Origin: Promethearchaeota archaeon
GTDB taxonomy: Archaea > Asgardarchaeota > Lokiarchaeia > Sigyniarchaeales > SOKP01
Length of the DNA: 64,000 bases
Reading direction: 5' to 3'
Assembly: GCA_019058245.1 (NCBI GenBank)
Contig: JAHPZJ010000028.1
Location: 1-64,000, forward strand
Shown here piece after piece: positions 15,447 through 45,656 of this stretch. The notes beneath the pieces are model-generated. The model made no database searches. It saw only the letters and a program-made list of their open reading frames with translations, and was not told where the DNA came from. The stretch's first letter is position 1, and each line of letters opens with the position of its first letter. Made by a program: the position numbers and the translations under genes.

Positions 15447-16259
15447 ATGCCAATTTTTGATAATGAAGGAATTAAAATTTATTATGAAATTGAAGGAGAA
15501 GGGCCACCTGTGATAATGATTCATGGGTTTGCCGCAAATATCGAAGCTAATTGGAAAGTTACTAATTGGGTAGATGTTCTAAAGGATGATTATAAATTGA
15601 TACTTGTAGATTGTCGTGGGCACGGGAAAAGTGATAAACCTAAAGATGCTACTCAATATGGAGAAAAGATGAATGAAGATATCGTTAAATTACTTGATCA
15701 TTTATCTATTGAGAAGGCTAATTTTTTCGGATATTCTATGGGGGCAAGAGTAACTACAGATATTTTGCTTCAAAATCAAGAACGCTTTATAAGTGCTATT
15801 ATTGGAGGATTCCCCCTCTATTATCCCAAAAAAAGTACAAAATTCATTGCTAAAGTAATGATGAAAAAATGGATAAAGGGACTAAAAAAAGCAAATCTTG
15901 ATGATGTTAAAAATAAAGCTGCTTTAAGATTCCAAAAAGTAATTTCAGAGTATGATGATTCTCACTTACAAGATCTTGAAGCTTTAATTTATGTATTGGA
16001 GGGGGATATTCAACGTCCGGATGGTATACTCCCCACTAATCCCGAAAGGAAAGAAGCTCTTAAAAAAGTCAATGTGCCAGTTATGACTGTTTTCGGAGCT
16101 GATGACGGTATAGTTAAAAGAAGTAAATCCACAGGAGCTCAATTAGTACCAGATTCTTGTTATTTCCAAATCGAAGGAAAAGACCATATTAGTGTTGTCG
16201 CAGATCCCAAATTTCACATGGTCGTAAAGGCTTTTCTAGATTATATAAACAAGAATTAA
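15447..16259 (+). CDS. Alpha/beta hydrolase (paralog of 30798 and 32114)
   Basis: HGF, DCRGHGKSD, GYSMG nucleophile, GKDH catalytic His. Confidence 0.9.
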   Translation: MPIFDNEGIKIYYEIEGEGPPVIMIHGFAANIEANWKVTNWVDVLKDDYKLILVDCRGHGKSDKPKDATQYGEKMNEDIVKLLDHLSIEKANFFGYSMGARVTTDILLQNQERFISAIIGGFPLYYPKKSTKFIAKVMMKKWIKGLKKANLDDVKNKAALRFQKVISEYDDSHLQDLEALIYVLEGDIQRPDGILPTNPERKEALKKVNVPVMTVFGADDGIVKRSKSTGAQLVPDSCYFQIEGKDHISVVADPKFHMVVKAFLDYINKN

Positions 16260-18905: not shown

Positions 18906-20711
18906 TTAATTGTTTGTCATCATATCATAAGTGTTTTTTACTGATTTACCTGAAACCCATTCATTTATAAGAATAAATTTTTGAACTAATTCATTTGCAT
19001 TTTTTGGTAATTCTTCTTTAAATTCTATGTATCTTGGAACCATAAAATAAGCCAAATTTTGCTGTAGAAACATACAAAACTCCTTATAGGTTATTGAAGC
19101 TCCTTTTTGAATAACAGCACATATTTTTATATCTTTTTCTGAGGAATCTTTATCAGGAACCTCAAAAACAGCACTTTCGACTATTAGTGGATGTGAATTT
19201 GCTACAATTTCGATGTTTACCGCAAAAAACATCTCTTTTTCTCTGAGAATCATATCAGATCTCCTTCCTAAATAGTATACGAAACCTTGAAGATCTATAT
19301 ATCCAAAATCACCTGTTAAAACCCATCTATCTTCACCTATTCTTGTAACAGTCTCCTCCTGTAAATTATAATATTCAAGTTCAAAAGGAAGTTTTGTTCT
19401 AGCACAGATTTCACCAACATGATCTCGTCCAGGAGGCAACTCATTTCCGTCTAAATCAACAATTTTAATTTCAACACCCCGAGCAGGTTTTCCAACAGAA
19501 CCAATTTTACCACCTTTAGAACCAACAATATTAATAGTAAAACCAATACCCTCGACTAAACCCCACATTTCAATTATATGAATCCCAAATCTCCTTTCAA
19601 AAGGTTCCCATATTTCTTGTAAAGCTCCAGCTCCTATGGCATATTTTATTGAATGATTTCTGTCATTTTTTGAGGGCGGCTGATTTACTAAGTTCATTAG
19701 GTGTGCTGCATAATAAGTAAAACCATCAGGTTTGTATTTTTCGACATCTTTCCAAAATGTTGAAATATTGAAGTTTTCAGCAACAATAATTGAACCATTA
19801 TAATACATAATTGGAATTATCAAGAAATATCGTTCTAATCCTTGAAATAATGGTAAAGGACAATAAAATTTGTTTGAGTCACTACCGAATCCTAAATGTT
19901 CTAATTGATTTCCAATACTAATTCCTGAAAGAGCAAAATAATTTCTATATATTACACCTTTTGGTTTTCCTGTCGTTCCTGATGTATAAGATATTTCAAG
20001 AGGATCATAACTATAGATATGAATATTAGGACTATCTGAATTTTTAGATAAGATTTCGGAAAAGTTTGCATATTTCCTTGCGTATTTAAAATCAATAGGA
20101 GCATTAAAAAGATAGATTTTGCGTATTTTTTTCAATTTTTCATAGATTTCTTCTACATTTTTAAAATATTTATAATCTATAATTAATATTTCAGAATTAC
20201 TATTTCTCAACACATATTCTAATAAATCCCCTTTAAACAAGTAACTTAATGGTACAAACATGTTACCCGTTTTTGCTATACCAAACCAACAAAAGAGAGC
20301 TTCTGGACAATTTGGTAATAACATGGAAATATGAGAATTCTTTAATTTTAATTTTTTAATTTGTTCTATAAGTCCATTGGCTATCTGATTTGAGATTGAA
20401 TTGACCTCTTGATAGGAAAAAATTTTATCTTTATAATATAGAAAAGGTCTATCTTTATTCACTAGTGCTTTACTTTCTATGAGATTTGCTATGGTGGCCG
20501 CCTCAATATCATAAACTTTTGTGAGATCACTTAGATTATATACCTTTCGAATTTCTAAGCTCTCACCTTTTAATTCTATCATTACTTCTTCTTTATCTCT
20601 AAAAGGAAAAGAGCTGTCTCTAACTATCTTATTTGGTATATAGACCCAATATGTGGAATATTTAGGATTACCCGATTTTTTTTCCGAAATCTTGCCCTTA
20701 GCAATTTTCAT
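18906..20711 (-). CDS. AbrB/SpoVT-like domain fused to a CaiC-like AMP-binding (acyl-CoA ligase) domain
   Basis: N-terminal YWVYIPNKIVRDSSFPFRDKEEVMIEL; YTSGTTGKPKG, TGDFG, GRRSD present; several C-terminal motifs degenerate. Confidence 0.75.
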   Translation of the reverse strand: MKIAKGKISEKKSGNPKYSTYWVYIPNKIVRDSSFPFRDKEEVMIELKGESLEIRKVYNLSDLTKVYDIEAATIANLIESKALVNKDRPFLYYKDKIFSYQEVNSISNQIANGLIEQIKKLKLKNSHISMLLPNCPEALFCWFGIAKTGNMFVPLSYLFKGDLLEYVLRNSNSEILIIDYKYFKNVEEIYEKLKKIRKIYLFNAPIDFKYARKYANFSEILSKNSDSPNIHIYSYDPLEISYTSGTTGKPKGVIYRNYFALSGISIGNQLEHLGFGSDSNKFYCPLPLFQGLERYFLIIPIMYYNGSIIVAENFNISTFWKDVEKYKPDGFTYYAAHLMNLVNQPPSKNDRNHSIKYAIGAGALQEIWEPFERRFGIHIIEMWGLVEGIGFTINIVGSKGGKIGSVGKPARGVEIKIVDLDGNELPPGRDHVGEICARTKLPFELEYYNLQEETVTRIGEDRWVLTGDFGYIDLQGFVYYLGRRSDMILREKEMFFAVNIEIVANSHPLIVESAVFEVPDKDSSEKDIKICAVIQKGASITYKEFCMFLQQNLAYFMVPRYIEFKEELPKNANELVQKFILINEWVSGKSVKNTYDMMTNN

Positions 20712-20732: not shown

Positions 20733-20766
20733 TTTACTACTGTAAATTAATTATTCCTAACGTAAA
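20733..20766. promoter_or_regulatory. Palindromic operator TTTAC-N4-GTAAA plus a degenerate second copy
   Basis: TTTACTACTGTAAA at 20733-20746 and ATTCCTAACGTAAA at 20753-20766, 22-55 nt upstream of the 20711 start. Confidence 0.6.
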
Positions 20767-20793: not shown

Positions 20794-22800
20794 CTATTTT
20801 AAAGGTATCTTATCATATTCTTGTTTTAATAGAGGGAATTTGTCAAGATTATAATGAGGAAAATAAAGAGAAAAAGTATATTCCTTGTGAAATAGTGGCG
20901 ATGTTGCAATTTCTCTATATTTTATTTCATGAGCAATTTTATTCGCAATATTTCTCTGCTCAATATCCTTGATAAACATTTGTGCACCAATTCCAGCGGC
21001 ATTTCCAATCTGGAAAATCTTACTTTTATCGACCTCAGGAAATAATCCTATAAAAGCGGCATTCTCTTTATTGATGTACGTTCCAAAACCACCTGCTAGA
21101 ATAATTTGATCTAAAGACTCATTGCTTTTATCTTCCATTTCAAGTAATATATTAGCTGCGCTTAAAAATGCGGCCTTTGCTAATTGAACCTGATTAATAT
21201 CTTTCTGACAGATTGATATTTCATTAATATTAGTATTATTACTATTTGCCTCAAATTGTTCAATATCCCACTCTTCTTTATATAAGATATATTGATATCC
21301 ATCTTCTTTTTTTATAACACGATGATGATTCATAATTTCTTCTGATTTAGTATTGAATTTTCCTGCTCGTGTTATAATGTTTAATTTCAGCAATTCGGCT
21401 ATAGTATCAATTAATCCTGAGCCACATATTCCTAATGGGACTATATTTCCTATTACTCCAATTGTAGGTTCTAAAGTATCCTTATCTATAGTCACTGATT
21501 CAATTGCACCCTCAGAACCTCGCATTCCGTGTGAAATATGGGCACCCTCGAGTGCTGAACCTGCAGCACAAGACCCTGTAACTAATCCTGTGTTATTCCC
21601 TATGACAAGTTCTCCATTAGTTCCAATATCAATTAAGAGAGTATATTTATCATATGAATAGATTTTAGATGAGATTATACATCCGATTGTATCAGTTCCT
21701 ACATAACCTGCTATAACCGGTGGAGAATAAACATTTACATTTGGATTGCATATTATTCCTAGTTTATTAGCAGTTACATTAATTGGGGCTTTAAATACAG
21801 GAGGAAAAGGTGATGTGGCTAAAAATTGCGGAGAAATTCCAAAAAATATATGATGCATTCCTGTATTTCCTACGATCGAAATATCTTTCAAACATGAAAC
21901 GGATATATTAGCTTTGCTACAACATTCCTCAATGATTTGATTGATAGCACTAACAATCAAGTCTTTAGCTTTTTGAATTGCATCGTTCTTTACAATATAT
22001 GTAATTCGTGAAACTACATCTTCACCGATGGCCACTTGAGGATTCAGCATTGCTGAAATTGCGACAATTTCTCCTGTTTTTAAATAAATTAAATAACCAA
22101 CAATAGTGGTAGTTCCAATATCGACAGCTAATCCAAAAATTTCCTTGCTTTTATCTCCGGCATCAACATCATAGAGGGTCCAGTTATCTTCCATAGAGAG
22201 CTTTCTAAAGTGACTTGTAACCTCACCATTGTCTGCTCTCATGATATGTGGTAATCTTTGAGTAATAGAATGTAAAATATCATCTACATGAAATGTTGGT
22301 TGATCTTCCTTTATGTTATAAGTATTGCTATTTTTTATTATACTCTCAAATAAACCAGACAAATCATTTCTAGGATTATTTAAATCTGCAGGAGTAATCT
22401 TAGATACTTGAGAAGAAATTACAGGTTGGAGCTTCTCAGTCTCTTTTATTCCAAGAGTCTCTAAACCAGCATCAACCATAATTCTTGTTCCTCTCGAAAT
22501 TAGAGAGTCGGTTAAAAAGACTCTTAAATCTCCAAAAATTCTTGTTTGACATGCTAACCTAAAACCTTCTGATATTTTTTGGCTACCTAAAATTTTTCGT
22601 TCTTGTTCTGTAGGTTCAGAAATTTTTGGATTAGGATCTAAAACACGAATTAGACATTTTCCACACGTTCCCTTACCAGCACATAATGCACTCATAGCAA
22701 AATTCAATGCTAAAAGTGATTCATATACTGTAGAACCTTCTTTAACATTCGTTCGTTTAGATATTGGTTCTAATATAAGCTTAATTCTCTCATTTGTCAT
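20794..22800 (-). CDS. Reductive activator of corrinoid protein (RACo/DUF4445, ASKHA ATPase with N-terminal 2Fe-2S domain)
   Basis: CAGKGTCGKC...RLACQ; VDIGTTT, GEDVVSRI, IDIGTNGE, CAAGSALEG, GICGSG, LAGGFG, GNAAG. Confidence 0.9.
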   Translation of the reverse strand: MTNERIKLILEPISKRTNVKEGSTVYESLLALNFAMSALCAGKGTCGKCLIRVLDPNPKISEPTEQERKILGSQKISEGFRLACQTRIFGDLRVFLTDSLISRGTRIMVDAGLETLGIKETEKLQPVISSQVSKITPADLNNPRNDLSGLFESIIKNSNTYNIKEDQPTFHVDDILHSITQRLPHIMRADNGEVTSHFRKLSMEDNWTLYDVDAGDKSKEIFGLAVDIGTTTIVGYLIYLKTGEIVAISAMLNPQVAIGEDVVSRITYIVKNDAIQKAKDLIVSAINQIIEECCSKANISVSCLKDISIVGNTGMHHIFFGISPQFLATSPFPPVFKAPINVTANKLGIICNPNVNVYSPPVIAGYVGTDTIGCIISSKIYSYDKYTLLIDIGTNGELVIGNNTGLVTGSCAAGSALEGAHISHGMRGSEGAIESVTIDKDTLEPTIGVIGNIVPLGICGSGLIDTIAELLKLNIITRAGKFNTKSEEIMNHHRVIKKEDGYQYILYKEEWDIEQFEANSNNTNINEISICQKDINQVQLAKAAFLSAANILLEMEDKSNESLDQIILAGGFGTYINKENAAFIGLFPEVDKSKIFQIGNAAGIGAQMFIKDIEQRNIANKIAHEIKYREIATSPLFHKEYTFSLYFPHYNLDKFPLLKQEYDKIPLK

Positions 22801-22902: not shown

Positions 22903-23577
22903 TTAATCCCTTAACCAATTATCAATAATATCAACACCTTGTAAAGCGTCTGTAGCATATGCATCTGCGTTTGTCTCTTCCGCGATTTCAGGTGATACTG
23001 AAGCACCTCCCAAAATCACTTTTATTTTTGATGCCAATTCTCCATCTTTTAATAAATTCATGGCTCTCTTTATAGCTGGTTCTGCTGAAGAAAGTAGGAA
23101 AGAAATGCCAACAACTTTTACATCTGGTTGTTGAGCTACTTCTTTAAATTTTTCAGGACTTACATCTGTTCCAAGGTCAATAAATTCCATACCATAAGAC
23201 TTCATTAAAGCAATTAATATACTTTTACCCAAATTATGAATATCACCTTCAATTGTTCCTACGACAACTTTTCCATTGTAATTCCTACTTTCTGCCAAAT
23301 CAACTCTATTTTCCTCATCAATACAGAGAACCTCGCCCTCTAGGGCTTCAGCTGCTAAAATTAGCCCCATATCTCCCGATTCATCTAATCCTTCTAGGAT
23401 TCCTTTTTTAACTATTTCGATTATTGGTACTTTAGCATCCATTGCTTGTCTTATTGCTTCTTTCATCGAAAAAAAGTCAAGTGAAGAAACAGCTTCAATA
23501 ACATTATTGAGATAATCAATATTATCCCTTGATTTTTTTTTATCTTTTATTACAATTGCTTCTTCCATTATTCTCAT
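22903..23577 (-). CDS. Methyltransferase cognate corrinoid (B12-binding) protein
   Basis: VVVGTIEGDIHNLGK (DxHxxG), DLGTDVSPEKF, VILGGA. Confidence 0.88.
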   Translation of the reverse strand: MRIMEEAIVIKDKKKSRDNIDYLNNVIEAVSSLDFFSMKEAIRQAMDAKVPIIEIVKKGILEGLDESGDMGLILAAEALEGEVLCIDEENRVDLAESRNYNGKVVVGTIEGDIHNLGKSILIALMKSYGMEFIDLGTDVSPEKFKEVAQQPDVKVVGISFLLSSAEPAIKRAMNLLKDGELASKIKVILGGASVSPEIAEETNADAYATDALQGVDIIDNWLRD

Positions 23578-23608: not shown

Positions 23609-24394
23609 TTATACTACAAAAACAATGCCATGCCAAACAACAAATGGAATTGATTCATCTGGATGTTCCGGATTAATGACATATGGTGCCTTTTCGCCAC
23701 ACTTTACCGCGGTAGCAAAACTATCTACTCCACATGCCTCTAATGCTGGTCGAGCTCGTAAATATTGTCGACACATTTCACCGTTAAGTGTAGGACATGT
23801 TGGTATTTTTTTCTGTTGCATTAAATCCTTGAAATATTCTGGTGAAAAAAATCCACACCCAACACAAGGACCTCCTTTAAATCCCATCGCAAGATAATAT
23901 CCTAGGTATGTCGCTTCTCCCTCAATCATTCCAACCATCTGATTTAATAAGTTAACATCTCCTTGAACCCCTAGAAGAATACTAGGGAAAACATGGTTCT
24001 TTTTTGGGGGATAAAATGATACTAAAATAGCATGTTTATAGCAACTAATAATTTCTCTCATTTGATCGGTGGTTGGAGAATGTGGTGGACAATTTATACT
24101 CGTTCCGAAACCAAAACATATAGGAATTTGACATTTCCAACGTACACGTGGATCTATTACAATTTTGTCTGTTGTTATTAATTTCGCATGACCAGAAGCA
24201 TCTATTTTTGATTTTTTGATTAGTTCATCTATGATTTTATTAGAACGATCTAAAAGTTCATTAAGAACCTCTTCATCAGCCTCAAACTTTATTGGAGAGG
24301 GTGGTCTGTCTTTTTTTATTGGTAATAATCTTCTCCATTTAAAAGAGATTTTAGACCATTCTTTGTCAACTTCAGGTATTACTTTCTGTGCCAT
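23609..24394 (-). CDS. DUF2284-family metal-binding protein
   Basis: RWKCQIPIC...CPPHSP, GGPCVGC, RPALEACGVD. Confidence 0.8.
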   Translation of the reverse strand: MAQKVIPEVDKEWSKISFKWRRLLPIKKDRPPSPIKFEADEEVLNELLDRSNKIIDELIKKSKIDASGHAKLITTDKIVIDPRVRWKCQIPICFGFGTSINCPPHSPTTDQMREIISCYKHAILVSFYPPKKNHVFPSILLGVQGDVNLLNQMVGMIEGEATYLGYYLAMGFKGGPCVGCGFFSPEYFKDLMQQKKIPTCPTLNGEMCRQYLRARPALEACGVDSFATAVKCGEKAPYVINPEHPDESIPFVVWHGIVFVV

Positions 24395-24463: not shown

Positions 24464-24477
24464 TTTACGTACGTAAA
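24464..24477. promoter_or_regulatory. Perfect palindrome TTTACGTACGTAAA (putative operator)
   Basis: 14-bp perfect palindrome 70 nt upstream of the DUF2284 start. Confidence 0.65.
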
Positions 24478-24550
24478 TTCTATTCTATATTAGTAAATAA
24501 TAGCTTTAAATTATTATGAACTCGTTATGATTTATAAAAGTTATTAAAAT

Positions 24551-24564
24551 TTTACTTACGTAAA
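24551..24564. promoter_or_regulatory. Second operator copy TTTACTTACGTAAA
   Basis: One mismatch to 24464-24477. Confidence 0.6.
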
Positions 24565-26106: not shown

Positions 26107-27556
26107 CAGAAAAGCTCAAGAATACAGTTCCCTTTAGGGAGATGATGAATTGAGTATGAAAAGAAAATCACTAAATTCTTATCCACTTCTCATTTTTAAT
26201 TTACGGTGTATTATCATTAGAAAAATGAAGCTAACACAAAAGATTAGGATATTCCCCTCTGAAAAGCAAGAACTCCTTCTTTGGATCTTATCGGAGAAAT
26301 GCCGCCTCCTATATAATTTTGCGTTAGCGGAACGAATGGAAAATTGGCAAAAGAATAAGGATCTTCCACGAGAAAAACGCCACTATGTTAATTATCTTAT
26401 CCAATCAAGAGCATTACCCGGATTCAAAGAAAAATATCCCGAATATAAATGGGTATATTCAAAGGTTCTCCAAACAATCCTTAAAAAACTCGATGGAAAC
26501 TATAAATCCTTCTTTGCTCTATGGAACAAGGGAGATAAAGATGCAAGACCCCCACGATTTAAAGGGAAGAACTATTTCACCACCCTTTGTTATAATCAAT
26601 CTGGCTTTAAATTACAGGAGAATTCAATCATGTTCTCTCATAAACATCCTTCGAATATCATACTTGAATTTGAACTTCCCTCTCATCTCATTCCTCAAGG
26701 AACTATTAAGCAAGTAGAACTTATTCAGTCTGATAAGAGATGGTATATTTCCCTCACATATGATCTCAAAGTCCCTAAATATTATGATAATCATTCTTAT
26801 CAAGCATTTGATTTAGGAATAAGTCAGACTGTAGGGGTAAACCTTTCTGGAAACTCAGTACAATTCACTCACAGAAGAGCAGACCTCTATTGGAAAAAAA
26901 AGATAAAGGAAGTACATTCAAAACGAGATCATTGTAAAAAATACAGCAATAAATGGTATTGGTATCATTCAAAACTGCTTCGAATGATTAAAAAATGCTC
27001 TTATCAGCTGAAAGATTTCCAGCATTGGCTTTCAAACCAAATTGTATCTCATACTAAAGCGAACACGATTATTGTTGGAGATTTAAAAATAAAACAGATA
27101 GCTCAAAAGAAGAAAGGAACGGGTAATGCTAAAAAGAATAGGATAAGTAACACACTCAACCATTCGGTTCACAACACAGGCTATTTGTCACGATTTACCG
27201 AATTCTTAACCTACAAAGCAGAAAAAAGAGGTAAAAAAGTAATAAGAATTGACGAATCGAAGACTACAAAAGCCTGCTGTAAATGTGGAAAGCTCGAAAA
27301 GAGGGCAATTTTCGAGAGAAGTATTACTTGTGATTGTGGAAATCGTATTGACCGAGATCTCAACTCAGCAATCAATATCATGATACGTTTTTTGTCAGAA
27401 AAACACAAATTCGATTTCTTATCGCACGAATCCTCCGTGAACGAGGAATCATTCCTAAAACAATGGAATGGTTTTCTACGACATACAGACCAACCCGTAC
27501 TAGAAGCGGTTGTGCACTCGTAGGAAGCCACAGCCTTTAGGCTGTGTGTAGTTCAC
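26107..27556 (+). mobile_element. IS200/IS605-family element with tnpB only (IS1341-like, non-autonomous)
   Basis: Left-end hairpin CTCAA...TCCCTTTAGGGA...TTGAG preceded by TTTAT; right end GAAGCCACAGCCTTTAGGCTGTGTGTAGTTCAC ending at 27556; no tnpA; left boundary is approximate. Confidence 0.8.
26225..27523 (+). CDS. tnpB: RNA-guided endonuclease TnpB
   Basis: KIRIFPS...CRLLYNFAL, PPRFK, AFDLG (RuvC-I), IIVGDL / IDES, CCKC...CDC zinc ribbon, DRDLNSAINI (RuvC-III). Confidence 0.92.
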   Translation: MKLTQKIRIFPSEKQELLLWILSEKCRLLYNFALAERMENWQKNKDLPREKRHYVNYLIQSRALPGFKEKYPEYKWVYSKVLQTILKKLDGNYKSFFALWNKGDKDARPPRFKGKNYFTTLCYNQSGFKLQENSIMFSHKHPSNIILEFELPSHLIPQGTIKQVELIQSDKRWYISLTYDLKVPKYYDNHSYQAFDLGISQTVGVNLSGNSVQFTHRRADLYWKKKIKEVHSKRDHCKKYSNKWYWYHSKLLRMIKKCSYQLKDFQHWLSNQIVSHTKANTIIVGDLKIKQIAQKKKGTGNAKKNRISNTLNHSVHNTGYLSRFTEFLTYKAEKRGKKVIRIDESKTTKACCKCGKLEKRAIFERSITCDCGNRIDRDLNSAINIMIRFLSEKHKFDFLSHESSVNEESFLKQWNGFLRHTDQPVLEAVVHS

Positions 27557-30797: not shown

Positions 30798-31607
30798 ATG
30801 CCATTTTTAGATAATGAGGGTGTTAAAATTTATTATGAAGTTGAAGGAGAAGGTCCACCAGTGATCCTAATTCATGGGATTGCGACAAGCATTGATGGTA
30901 ATTGGAAAGATACTAATTGGGTAAATGTTCTAAAGGATGATTATAAATTAATACTTATGGATTGTCGTGGACATGGGAGAAGTGATAAACCTAAAGATCC
31001 TGCGCAATATGGAGACCATATGATTGATGATATCATTAAATTGCTTGATCATTTATCTATTAAGAAAGCTAATTTTTTCGGTTATTCTATGGGATCGATG
31101 CTAACTATGGAGCTTTTGCTTCGAAATCAAGAACTCTTTATAAGTGCTATTCTTGGAGGATTTGCACTTTCGTTTCCAGGAGAGAAAGAAAGAGCCGCTA
31201 CTAAACAACTGATCGATAATTGGATAGAGGGATTAAAAACAGAAAATATTGAGGATATAAAAAATCCCGCTATTTTGAGATTCCGACAAGTAATTGGGGC
31301 TTATAAAGATTCCCATTTACAAGATTTTGATGCTTTAATTGCCGCTTTAAAGGGTGGTAATCTAGGTCCAGGAGTTTCATCCCTACCAAATGATGAAAAG
31401 AGAGAGGCTGTTAAAAAAATCAAAGTACCAGTTATGGGAGTTTTAGGATCTGAAGACTTAATAATGGGGGATAGAACTTTAATAGCTCAATTAGTACCAG
31501 GTGCTTGTTATTTTCAAATTCAAGGAAAGGATCACATTACTGTAGTCTCTGATCCAAAATTTCACATGGTTGTAAAAGCTTTTCTGGACTATGTAAACAA
31601 AAACTAA
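30798..31607 (+). CDS. Alpha/beta hydrolase (copy 1)
   Basis: GYSMG, GKDH. Confidence 0.9.
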   Translation: MPFLDNEGVKIYYEVEGEGPPVILIHGIATSIDGNWKDTNWVNVLKDDYKLILMDCRGHGRSDKPKDPAQYGDHMIDDIIKLLDHLSIKKANFFGYSMGSMLTMELLLRNQELFISAILGGFALSFPGEKERAATKQLIDNWIEGLKTENIEDIKNPAILRFRQVIGAYKDSHLQDFDALIAALKGGNLGPGVSSLPNDEKREAVKKIKVPVMGVLGSEDLIMGDRTLIAQLVPGACYFQIQGKDHITVVSDPKFHMVVKAFLDYVNKN

Positions 31608-32113: not shown

Positions 32114-32923
32114 ATGCCATTTTTTGATAATGAGGGTGTTAAAATTTATTATGAAGTTGAAGGAGAAGGCCCACCAGTGGTCCTGATTCATGGGTTTGCT
32201 GCAAGTTTAGAAGGTAATTGGAAAGGAACAAATTGGGTGAAGGTTCTAAAGGATAAATATAAAGTAATACTTTTGGACTGCCGTGGACATGGCAAAAGTG
32301 ATAAACCCGTGGATCCAAAGCAATATGGCGCACATATGACTGATGATATAATAAAGCTGCTTGATCATTTATCTATCAAGAAAGCTAACTTCTTTGGGTA
32401 TTCTATGGGCTCAAGATTAACCATGGAACTTTTATTAAGCAATCAAGAACTCTTTATAAGTGCTATTCTTGGGGGATATGCACTTCAGTTTCCTGGAGAG
32501 AAAGAAATAGCTGCTGCTGAAAAGAGAAGACGTGATTGGATTGAGGCTTTAACAGCAAAAGATGTGGATAGCCTAAAAAATCCAGAGGCTTTAAGATTTA
32601 TACGTACAATTTCGTTTTATAAAGATTTCAATTTACAAAATTTAGAGGCTTTAGCTGCCGTTTTGAAGACAAGTTTTCAAATTGAGGGAGATTTAGCCAA
32701 AATTAATGCTGAAAGAAAAGAAACTCTTAAAAAAGTCAATGTACCAGTTATGACTGTTGTAGGATCTGATGATTTCATTCCTGGGGATAAAACTTTAGTA
32801 GCTCAAATAGTTCCAGATGCTTGTCACTTTCAAATTCAAGGAAAAGACCATATAAATGTTGTCCCTGATCCCAAATTTCATATGGTAGTAAAAGCCTTTC
32901 TGGATTATGTAAACAAGAATTAG
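32114..32923 (+). CDS. Alpha/beta hydrolase (copy 2)
   Basis: GYSMG, GKDH. Confidence 0.9.
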   Translation: MPFFDNEGVKIYYEVEGEGPPVVLIHGFAASLEGNWKGTNWVKVLKDKYKVILLDCRGHGKSDKPVDPKQYGAHMTDDIIKLLDHLSIKKANFFGYSMGSRLTMELLLSNQELFISAILGGYALQFPGEKEIAAAEKRRRDWIEALTAKDVDSLKNPEALRFIRTISFYKDFNLQNLEALAAVLKTSFQIEGDLAKINAERKETLKKVNVPVMTVVGSDDFIPGDKTLVAQIVPDACHFQIQGKDHINVVPDPKFHMVVKAFLDYVNKN

Positions 32924-43088: not shown

Positions 43089-44426
43089 TTATTTAATTTT
43101 ATATTGACTTTTCAAGAAATTTATAACATACTCTTTTACTTTATCTCGATCAGGTAAGCTAGCTATCATTCCATATATTGCAGCGTCTCCAGAAGAAGTT
43201 TCTTTTGGATTATTAAGAACTTCATTAGCTGATTCCCGAAGGTCTTTCAAGAAGATATCAGTAATCTCTTCATGATGTGGATTGACCATCATATGTAAAG
43301 CATTTGGAAATTGGATTCGATCTAAATGCCAATCTTTTTTATCCAAGATATCACCTAAATGATAAACATCAAATTTATTAGAAGTAAAGGAAAAAACACT
43401 CATTACTGGATTTCCGATAATGTATAACTCAGGTATTTGATTAATCCCTTCAATTAACTTTTTTGAAGTATCCATTACTTTTTTTGCTAGTTTTAGATAT
43501 CCATCCATTCCTAAATGTTTCATTGCAGCCCACGCCGCCGCTATCGCTCCTCCTGGACGAGTTCCTCTCATGGATGGAGAAATATAGATCCCTCCTGACC
43601 AATCAGTATATACAGAAAATTGATGTTTCCAGATTCTTTCTTTTCGATATAATATTAAAGATGCTCCTTTTGCACCATAACCATATTTATGAACATCAGC
43701 AGAGATAGATGTGACACCTGGTACAGAAAAATCAAAATCAGGTACTTCATAACCTAATTTCTTAACAAATGGTAACATAAATCCTCCTAAACATCCGTCA
43801 ACATGCAATCCGAGATCATGATCTTTCGCAATTATTCCTAGCTCAGTTATAGGGTCTACTACTCCTCTTGGAAAATCGCAGGCAGAGCCAACTAGTAAAA
43901 TTGTGTTATCATTAATTGCATTTTCTATAGCTTTCACATTTGCTCGATAATTATTCTTATCTACTGGTATTCTTACCGATTTTACTTTAAAATAGTCAGC
44001 TCCTTTTTCAAATGCAGGATGAGCAGAGTTAGGTAATATCATTTCAGGGTTCTTAATGTTAGGAAATTTCTCTTTGGCCCAATCTCTATATGTTTTTATA
44101 GCCATTAGAATACTTTCAGTGCCACCAGAAGTCATACTTCCACAACATCTTTTATTTCCATTAAATAAATCAATACCCATAGAAACTACTTCAGTTTCAA
44201 ATTTTTTTAGACTTGGAAAGGCAATTGGACTTAAAGCATTCTTTGAGAAAAACATTGTATATGCTTTTTTAAGCATTTCGGTATGCTCGTCGTTTGCGTG
44301 GTAAACTAAACTCCAAACTTTACCCTCTCTCCAATTTATATCATCGTTACGGCTTTCATCCATTTGTTTTAGGACATCTTCTACTGAATGCCCTTCTTGT
44401 GGTAATACTACTTTAGGTCTAGCCAT
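43089..44426 (-). CDS. Sphingosine-1-phosphate lyase-like group II PLP enzyme
   Basis: WREGKVWSLVY, TSGGTESI, AHPAFEK, HVDGCLGGF, SISADVHKYGY, GTRPGG. Confidence 0.85.
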   Translation of the reverse strand: MARPKVVLPQEGHSVEDVLKQMDESRNDDINWREGKVWSLVYHANDEHTEMLKKAYTMFFSKNALSPIAFPSLKKFETEVVSMGIDLFNGNKRCCGSMTSGGTESILMAIKTYRDWAKEKFPNIKNPEMILPNSAHPAFEKGADYFKVKSVRIPVDKNNYRANVKAIENAINDNTILLVGSACDFPRGVVDPITELGIIAKDHDLGLHVDGCLGGFMLPFVKKLGYEVPDFDFSVPGVTSISADVHKYGYGAKGASLILYRKERIWKHQFSVYTDWSGGIYISPSMRGTRPGGAIAAAWAAMKHLGMDGYLKLAKKVMDTSKKLIEGINQIPELYIIGNPVMSVFSFTSNKFDVYHLGDILDKKDWHLDRIQFPNALHMMVNPHHEEITDIFLKDLRESANEVLNNPKETSSGDAAIYGMIASLPDRDKVKEYVINFLKSQYKIK

Positions 44427-44498: not shown

Positions 44499-45656
44499 CT
44501 AAAAGGATTTTAAGGGGTATACTCCAAATTTGTTTACAGCGTCAATCATCCATTCTAAACGTTTAGGTGATATAGTTGGATGAAAATTAGCAGGAGAAAT
44601 TAGGAATCCACCCCCATGACCCATTGCTGATATTGCGTCTTTTACTGCTTGTTCCACTTCCAATTTTGATGCATCTACTAAAATATATCTTGTATCTATA
44701 TTGCCGGAGAGACATAATTTATCCCCAACATTTTTTTTTACATAAATAGGATCAACGAGAGGAGGCTCAAGGCATTGAAGACCATCAAATCCTGATTCAA
44801 CTATAAAATCTAGAAGATCTGTTATATCTCCATCAGTATGTAAGATATATTTACCTTCCCACTCATGTATCGCATCTGAAACTTCTTTATAGCAAGGAAG
44901 TAAATATTTATGGAAGTATTTTGGATTAATCATTGGACCATTTCTCTGATCTATATCTCCACCCTCTAGAAATATTTTAGCTCCACAATCAGCATAAGCC
45001 TTGAAAACAGTTAAGGTAAAGTCAGTGCAAAAGCGAAAGCGTTCTTCAATTAATTGAGGATCATTTTTAAGAGCACGGGCAAATGAAGCCATTCCCATTC
45101 CCTGCCATACAGGGGGAAAAACTGAAGTAAGGGCATTTTGAGCAAAAATACAAATCTTTTCTTTAATATCACGGCACTTTCTAAAAACGCCCTTATAAAA
45201 TTTCTTAGCTCTTCTATATTCTTCTTTCAAATCAGGTTTAGGGTATGCTTCCCAATCTTCTCGATTCCTAATATATCCATCATAATAATCAGGATAAGGA
45301 TTTCCATCTATATTTCTCAATTTATGTCTTTTGCCAAAGATATCGGTCATCTCACTTCGACTTTCAAGAATAAAAGGAATATATTGGATGCCAATCCCAT
45401 CAAAACCTATTTTATTAGCTGCTCTAATAGTTTTTGCAAACACAGAGATTTCAATATCATCTAATATTTGATTAATCCTTTCAATCCATTCATCTGGATA
45501 TTTTTCTTGCATCTCATCAAAGACATCAAAGGCAGTTTTTTCTAGTTTTCCTAAAATCATATCTGCAACATTTCCATCAATATTTATTGTATGAGTAGGA
45601 ATTCTATCAGGCTCTTCAAGGTTTAATGCAGTCTAAATTCTTTCAAAACTATCCAT
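44499..45656 (-). pseudogene. Uroporphyrinogen-decarboxylase-family (MtaA/CmuA-like) protein interrupted by TAG at codon 8
   Basis: MDSFERI*TALNLEEPDRIP continues in frame into the 353-aa ORF (HTDG, LSGNID, GGGFLISP). Confidence 0.7.

Follow-up and report, generated by a model that had tools for sequence, protein, structure and literature searches.

A probable one-component regulator from Asgard archaea: an AbrB-like domain fused to a degenerate acyl-CoA ligase

What might a protein do that carries a putative DNA-binding domain in front of an acyl-CoA ligase with altered catalytic motifs? The question is raised by a minus-strand gene (18906..20711) in the window, i.e., the whole 64,000-nucleotide stretch of Promethearchaeota DNA analyzed here. 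The gene is one intact ORF of 601 amino acids, and the motifs that a sequence-only reading had listed are all found in it. That reading combined an AbrB-like fold, degenerate catalytic motifs and a proposed DNA site, and independent tests upheld each of these. We are highly confident that the fusion protein is a DNA-binding regulator. As an overall explanation, we consider it likely that it was made from an enzyme and serves as an autoregulated, local one-component regulator of acyl-CoA or carboxylate metabolism. In a Pfam search, PF00501 and PF13193 matched residues 80–573, and the ANL (acyl-CoA ligase) fold spans residues of about 73–587 (18951..20495, minus strand). The full-length model shows a normal two-subdomain ANL fold (pLDDT 90). 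It is closest to PRK06155/CaiC-like ligases, and the nearest curated families, PRK06187, PRK06155 and CaiC, all scored far under their cut-offs.

Residues 1–58 (20538..20711, minus strand; pI 9.6) were assigned to the AbrB/SpoVT/MazE-type swapped-hairpin domains by fold match and dimer prediction. Their model (pLDDT 89) has the element order E7–12, E19–24, H27–30, E43–48 and E51–56, that is beta-beta-alpha-beta-beta. The top 10 structural matches among 48161 chains were all of the AbrB/SpoVT/VapB/MazE type, including archaeal AbrB-type proteins (Z 2.5–4.2, VIA), the best being 5itj (Z 4.2, rmsd 2.1, 46 aligned residues). Individually these scores are weak (Z ≤4.2, Foldseek E >0.5), which is no surprise for a 50-residue half-barrel; the evidence lies in the uniformity of the match list, and further structure searches gave similar lists. 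In the Atlas, the structural neighbors were an AbrB/MazE/SpoVT cluster (TM 0.58) and stand-alone archaeal proteins (0.73–0.77). A homodimer of the N-domain was predicted with a score of 0.49 versus 0.00 for the best control, passing a mark that 20 of 30 true pairs and 1 of 23 single chains reached. Contact agreement was at least 94% at a pLDDT of 72, although likeness to solved AbrB dimers may drive this pass. The predicted contacts are strand-swapped, pairing residues 4–8 with 42–46 of the partner and 51–54 with 51–54. The initial proposal of an AbrB/SpoVT-like segment at residues 1–57 thus gained the support of the structure prediction that it had called for, in fold and in dimer topology.

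By sequence the N-domain is divergent. Taken alone it had no significant match in Pfam, NCBIfam, PDB-sequence or Atlas feature searches. PF04014 did not match the query and gave weak matches in 5 of 53 fused and 30 of 103 stand-alone homologs (best stand-alone E 1.3e-4). The N-terminal 58 residues are nevertheless found in all full-length homologs, with Y18, W22, Y24, P26, F35, P36 and F37 invariant in the family. The domain also occurs as hundreds of stand-alone proteins of 55–90 residues (482 representatives at E 0.001). These form an AbrB-like family with a DxxFPF signature that Pfam mostly misses (L024, L025, L026, L028, L029, P0134–P0269), and one protein, P0148, carries two tandem copies of the domain.

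In the ligase part, we scored six catalytic positions, namely A4 His, A5 Thr/Ser, A8 Arg, A8 Gly, A8 Asn/Lys and A10 Lys/Arg. The query retains one of the six, R483. The A4 His is replaced by Gln290 in PLFQ (19842..19844, minus strand), and in the A8 hinge and loop (19230..19268, minus strand) the Gly has become K492 and the Asn M494, within REKEMF at 490–495; both deviations had been read correctly from the start. The A5 motif WGLVE (residues 383–387; 19551..19565, minus strand) had also been called deviant. Its Thr-to-Val386 exchange is a real defect, whereas W383 fits the family consensus, which is aromatic at the first A5 position (PMC8388817, Table 2); Trp is likewise found there in 4 unfused relatives. 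At A10, pairwise alignment to solved ligases places Leu575 (18987..18989, minus strand) in register with the catalytic Lys, as had been claimed. The defect is better described as the loss of any basic residue, since the 54 nearest unfused relatives have 37 Lys and 17 Arg at this position. An Arg at A10 is therefore no reason to regard basal fused members as dead. Arg for Lys is seen in many unfused PRK06155-like ligases (L100:4735–6411, L117–L166). All 14 other ligases of the query genome retain the Lys. Isophthalate-CoA ligase was tried as a characterized relative and rejected, being PaaK-type and unrelated.

What the query keeps is the nucleotide side of the active site. The P-loop (A3) with K251 is intact (residues 242–252; 19956..19988, minus strand), as are W383 and E387 of A5, TGD at 466–468 with the A7 Asp, and GR..D at 482–486. 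The positions of K251, W383, E387 and D468 hold nucleotide and Mg, and they are retained in 146–149 of 150 fused proteins. The A10 position varies freely in the same family (L, E, F, M, Q, Y, N). Two or fewer of the six positions remain in 124 of the 150 fused proteins, compared with all six in 15 of 17 unfused relatives. A further 25 conserved positions are peculiar to the fused family, among them family-specific invariants at 390–402 and elsewhere. Judged from these alignments, the fused family appears to be marked by a selective loss of chemistry under continued purifying selection and not by decay.

In ligases, the A10 Lys has been described as the key catalytic residue, and His and Thr mutants lost activity 500- and 100-fold, respectively (PMC8388817). 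By motif tests the query is not an active CaiC-type ligase, and the combined losses strongly suggest that it is catalytically dead. Alternatively, it could be a bifunctional trigger enzyme whose remaining ligase or adenylation activity is slow and which exerts its regulatory effect by way of its catalytic cycle or its product. The intact P-loop, TGD, E387 and R483 are compatible with such a role. However, five positions are missing at once, including the key lysine, the His and the Thr (PMC8388817), and A10 is free to vary in the family. We hence regard this reading of the query as improbable, even though its intact Helarchaeota-type relatives described below may work in this way.

The fused family comprises at least 150 Asgard-archaeal proteins (Promethearchaeota and Helarchaeota) in one clade, counted from homology searches as proteins of at least 480 amino acids with the N-domain. 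Named homologs come from Promethearchaeota/Lokiarchaeota, Helarchaeota and a few MAGs labelled Thor-, Hermod- or Odinarchaeota. About 44 of the 120 genomes analyzed from the same family carry the fusion, as do genomes from other families of the class, with 1–3 copies each. A clear gap separates fused proteins (≥37% identity over about 99% of the length) from unfused ones (≤32% over 84–89%). In four trees the fused proteins were monophyletic with an SH-aLRT of 100 and fell among CaiC/PRK06155-like ligases. Neighboring ligases fell elsewhere in the tree, and an origin by duplication of such a neighbor was therefore rejected.

Had the N-domain and motif loss been strictly coupled, as the sequence-only reading proposed to examine, no fused protein would be intact. 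Strict tracking was rejected: in a few fused members all catalytic motifs are intact. Natural INTERMEDIATE, namely P0275, P0290, P0291 and P0292 (two of them named Helarchaeota), combine the N-domain with all six positions. L047 has the same intact motifs, giving five Helarchaeota-type intact fused members in total. They head operons with enoyl-CoA hydratase, SDR and thiolase-like genes together with ChsH2-like and NMO-family genes, and no other ligase was found in these operons. That P0275, P0290, P0291, P0292 and L047 are intact and provide the only ligase beside enoyl-CoA hydratase, SDR and thiolase-like genes is the second point in favor of the bifunctional alternative. The palindrome discussed below was present at all three intact-member loci whose DNA was read. 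L208:10001–11833, L209:10001–11875 and L047:5741–7588, which lead CoA-catabolic operons with intact ligase motifs and the operator, are candidate bifunctional enzyme-regulators in their own right.

Whether or not the motif columns were included, the best trees placed the intact members as the first branch. This placement holds for those trees and not beyond them, since a tree constrained to have the intact trio inside the derived clade was not rejected in an AU test (p 0.127). The order of events does not hinge on it. The fused proteins make up a single clade in which some members still show the outgroup residues at all six positions; its ancestor should hence have been fused and intact, unless five residues were regained. 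We infer from this that fusion preceded catalytic loss; the family would have started from a fusion with a working ligase, and catalysis would have been lost afterwards.

If the query is a regulator, which DNA does it bind? A strong operator candidate, TTAC-N4-GTAA, lies at 20734..20745, 22 bp upstream of the fusion gene's start codon, and a weaker copy with 1 mismatch lies at 20754..20765, exactly 20 bp further upstream. The same pairing is seen upstream of the DUF2284-corrinoid-RACo operon, where a strong candidate at 24465..24476 has a weaker copy exactly 20 bp upstream at 24485..24496; a third, distal candidate is located at 24552..24563. Taken by itself, the window has no more palindromes than chance would allow: there are three exact occurrences, all at the fusion locus, versus 1.36 expected, and 17 of 100 shuffles reached three. 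Its significance comes from conservation across genomes. The site first proposed, TTTAC-N4-GTAAA, contains this palindrome. Among family genes at less than 90% identity, 31 of 43 have an exact TTAC-N4-GTAA in the 130 bp upstream, as do 15 of 22 at less than 70% and 8 of 11 at less than 55%. About a quarter of the family genes have no exact site within this distance. Other spacer lengths were found 0–4 times in the same upstream regions, and the background in the query genome is 3 of 1686 promoters.

The palindrome also precedes DUF2284 genes in 24 of 27 cases, and two of the three DUF2284 genes without it are divergent copies outside the cassette. A second half-site at exactly −20 accompanies 65% of fusion-gene promoters and 88% of DUF2284 promoters, so that promoters of unrelated sequence share one paired-site architecture. 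Around fusion genes we counted 92 intergenic sites in 106 kb (some loci overlap), compared with 1–11 for other spacers, and around unfused ligases there were 0 palindromes in 16.7 kb. The palindrome accompanies the fusion gene into unrelated neighborhoods and into Helarchaeota. No gene other than the fusion gene is shared by all 21 loci compared, which makes the fusion protein the likely binder of the palindrome. One might object that the site belongs to another factor and that the N-domain is a dimerization module, given the weak fold scores and the family genes at which the palindrome is absent. We consider this very improbable, because the palindrome tracks one gene, the only one shared by all loci examined, across changing surroundings and into Helarchaeota, and is missing at the two divergent DUF2284 genes outside the cassette.

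The regulon is local. A genome-wide regulon was rejected for lack of enrichment: the query genome has 7 intergenic sites, similar to other spacers, and a complete relative has 12 versus 24 for the reversed control. Beyond the fusion locus, the query genome has a single strong intergenic site (G000 C8:29963), which lies 131 bp before an unannotated 323-aa gene. At the fusion gene itself, the sites span −54 to −23 relative to the start codon, which favors autorepression. In the DUF2284 promoter, TATA-like elements are located on both sides of the site, about 55–60 bp upstream and 24–26 bp downstream of the start of the strong site, so that activation may be possible there; TATA mapping is ambiguous in the query genome at 29% GC.

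The probable targets next to the fusion gene form a co-oriented minus-strand operon. It starts with a DUF2284 Cys-rich protein (23609..24394), followed by a methyltransferase-type corrinoid protein (22903..23577) and a RACo/AcsV-like corrinoid reactivase (20794..22800), the only RACo found in the 76%-complete query genome. In the query's subfamily the cassette comprises DUF2284, corrinoid protein, RACo and fusion gene (10 of 21 loci), and it often lies beside a two-subunit CoA transferase. No recognizable methyltransferase was found in the DUF2284-corrinoid-RACo cassette, and an Atlas search with the DUF2284 protein returned only DUF2284 clusters. RACo proteins are ATP-driven reactivases. Given the established roles of RACo, the most likely task of the operon is to provide a corrinoid protein and restore its activity, so that methyl groups can be transferred from an organic substrate. 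Quaternary-amine sensing, suggested by the CaiC name together with MttB, is not favored, as no MttB was found in the 76%-complete genome and E. coli-type CaiC is not the sister group. The query genome encodes four URO-D/MtaA-family proteins away from this locus. In the window, one such protein (44499–45560) stands beside a PLP-dependent decarboxylase (43089–44426) and is a possible partner methyltransferase; no operator was seen at this pair. A Helarchaeota member of a different branch (L056:11856–13757) also adjoins a RACo gene, in convergent orientation.

Other subfamilies of the fused proteins adjoin branched-chain-type or Opp-type importers, intact ligases, thiolases, acyl-CoA dehydrogenases, esterases and flavin reductases, and palindromes precede such importer and CoA-catabolic operons as well. 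One Lokiarchaeota subgroup takes part in lignin and humic acid degradation (PMC8027215). Among further genes of the window are three paralogous alpha/beta hydrolases (15447–16259, 30798–31607 and 32114–32923), two of them 70% identical, with an operator-like site of one mismatch about 98 bp before the gene at 32114. An IS605-type TnpB with a Cas12f1-like TNB domain is encoded at 26150–27523.

Taken together, we may picture the regulator as follows. Two AbrB-type N-domains would form a swapped-hairpin dimer that binds TTAC-N4-GTAA, and two such dimers, spaced by 20 bp, could occupy the same helix face. The ligase fold would no longer synthesize acyl-adenylate or acyl-CoA but would keep its nucleotide pocket and the hinged C-terminal subdomain, which in active ligases rotates by 140 degrees (PMC8388817). 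Binding of a metabolite in the ligase pocket might shift this subdomain and thereby alter DNA occupancy. In this way the protein would control its own gene, most likely by repression, and also the co-oriented DUF2284-corrinoid-RACo operon, while other subfamilies would control the acid or ester uptake and CoA-catabolic operons that adjoin them.

Which ligand is sensed can be narrowed only tentatively. Gene context and the BzdR precedent make an acyl-CoA the likeliest effector, though we would put it at somewhat less than even chances. Loss of the A4 His, the A8 Gly and Asn and the A10 Lys removes carboxylate and pantetheine contacts, so that neither a small-acid nor a CoA ligand is assured. 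With the pantetheine-loop glycine and the A4 His gone, a free carboxylate that binds together with ATP or AMP is conceivable but less likely, and an adenine nucleotide alone is unlikely; an acyl-adenylate seems more unlikely still. The retained adenine/ribose/Mg pocket, together with the new family-specific invariant residues at 390–402 and elsewhere, might instead mean that the ligase domain senses the adenylate energy state, or is an oligomerization or protein-partner module, and does not sense a pathway acid. Energy sensing would suit a local target such as RACo, whose reaction is driven by ATP. Acyl-pocket residues after A4, however, differ by subfamily, and the subfamilies stand beside different catabolic operons; nor does a local regulon, with a palindrome that is not enriched genome-wide, agree with an energy-state signal. 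We hence think either of these roles improbable and prefer a sensor of a pathway metabolite.

The closest functional precedent is BzdR of Azoarcus sp. CIB, in which a dead enzyme domain senses benzoyl-CoA and controls a catabolic operon (PMC3602430). For BzdR a path was proposed in which fusion came first and activity loss second, and an active intermediate was engineered as the Q1 chimera (PMC3602430). The query would resemble it in joining a DNA-binding domain to an enzyme-derived sensor that is dead, here as judged from motif loss, in the order of fusion and loss, and in its presumed acyl-CoA effector and operon control. BzdR consists of an HTH-XRE domain and a shikimate-kinase fold and is bacterial, whereas the query consists of AbrB-type and ANL folds and is from Asgard archaea. 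It would work like BzdR but is not a member of the BzdR subfamily, as neither domain is shared, and in place of an engineered intermediate its family has natural members with intact motifs.

With AbrB/SpoVT/MazE/VapB regulators, including B. subtilis SpoVT, the query shares the predicted fold and dimer topology and palindromic candidate autoregulatory operators. Unlike typical AbrB regulators, it belongs to a divergent subfamily with the DxxFPF signature, in which PF04014 is not called in the query, and its sensor is a 520-aa ligase fold. Archaeal AbrB-PhoU fusions, one of which was seen in L044, have a comparable architecture of AbrB and sensor domain; no profile match was found between the fusion family and the AbrB-PhoU protein. 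The nearest sequence family are the CaiC-like/PRK06155 (NF004808) ATP-dependent acyl-CoA ligases (E 7.5e-80, about 30–34% identity), of the same fold. From these the query departs by its score of 269 bits versus a cut-off of 722, by the loss of the A4 His, A5 Thr, A8 Gly/Asn and A10 Lys/Arg, and by the extra N-domain. Archaea are known to build a repressor from an enzyme domain in ThiR (HTH-ThiN). The query is proposed to be such a regulator too; ThiR differs in its DNA-binding and sensor folds and acts in the thiamine pathway.

No description of an AbrB domain joined to an ANL ligase was found in the literature searched, which left most subscription journals outside its coverage; the architecture appears as unfamiliar as the sequence-only reading had supposed. 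The kind of regulator is known; its parts and the natural series from intact to dead are not. We regard the family as real, conserved and probably new. With some reserve, we lean toward an Asgard-specific transcription factor family that uses the ANL fold as a sensor and in which a living series leads from working ligases that bind their own operator (the Helarchaeota-type P0275, P0290, P0292) to a dead sensor such as the query, with TTAC-N4-GTAA as the common site of all members. Engineered chimeras have so far provided most tests of the route from enzyme to regulator by gain of a DNA-binding domain and subsequent loss of activity (BzdR, PMC3602430). The fused family offers natural intermediates together with a candidate operator, so that the individual steps are open to direct assay. 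For some 150 proteins, the present annotation as AMP-binding or as crotonobetaine/carnitine-CoA ligase is probably wrong. If our reading is true, the ANL ligase fold would join the sensor modules of transcription factors, and the family would provide one of few predicted regulator–operator pairs in Asgard archaea. In the uncultured Lokiarchaeia, the candidate operator shows which uptake, CoA-catabolic and corrinoid genes belong together.
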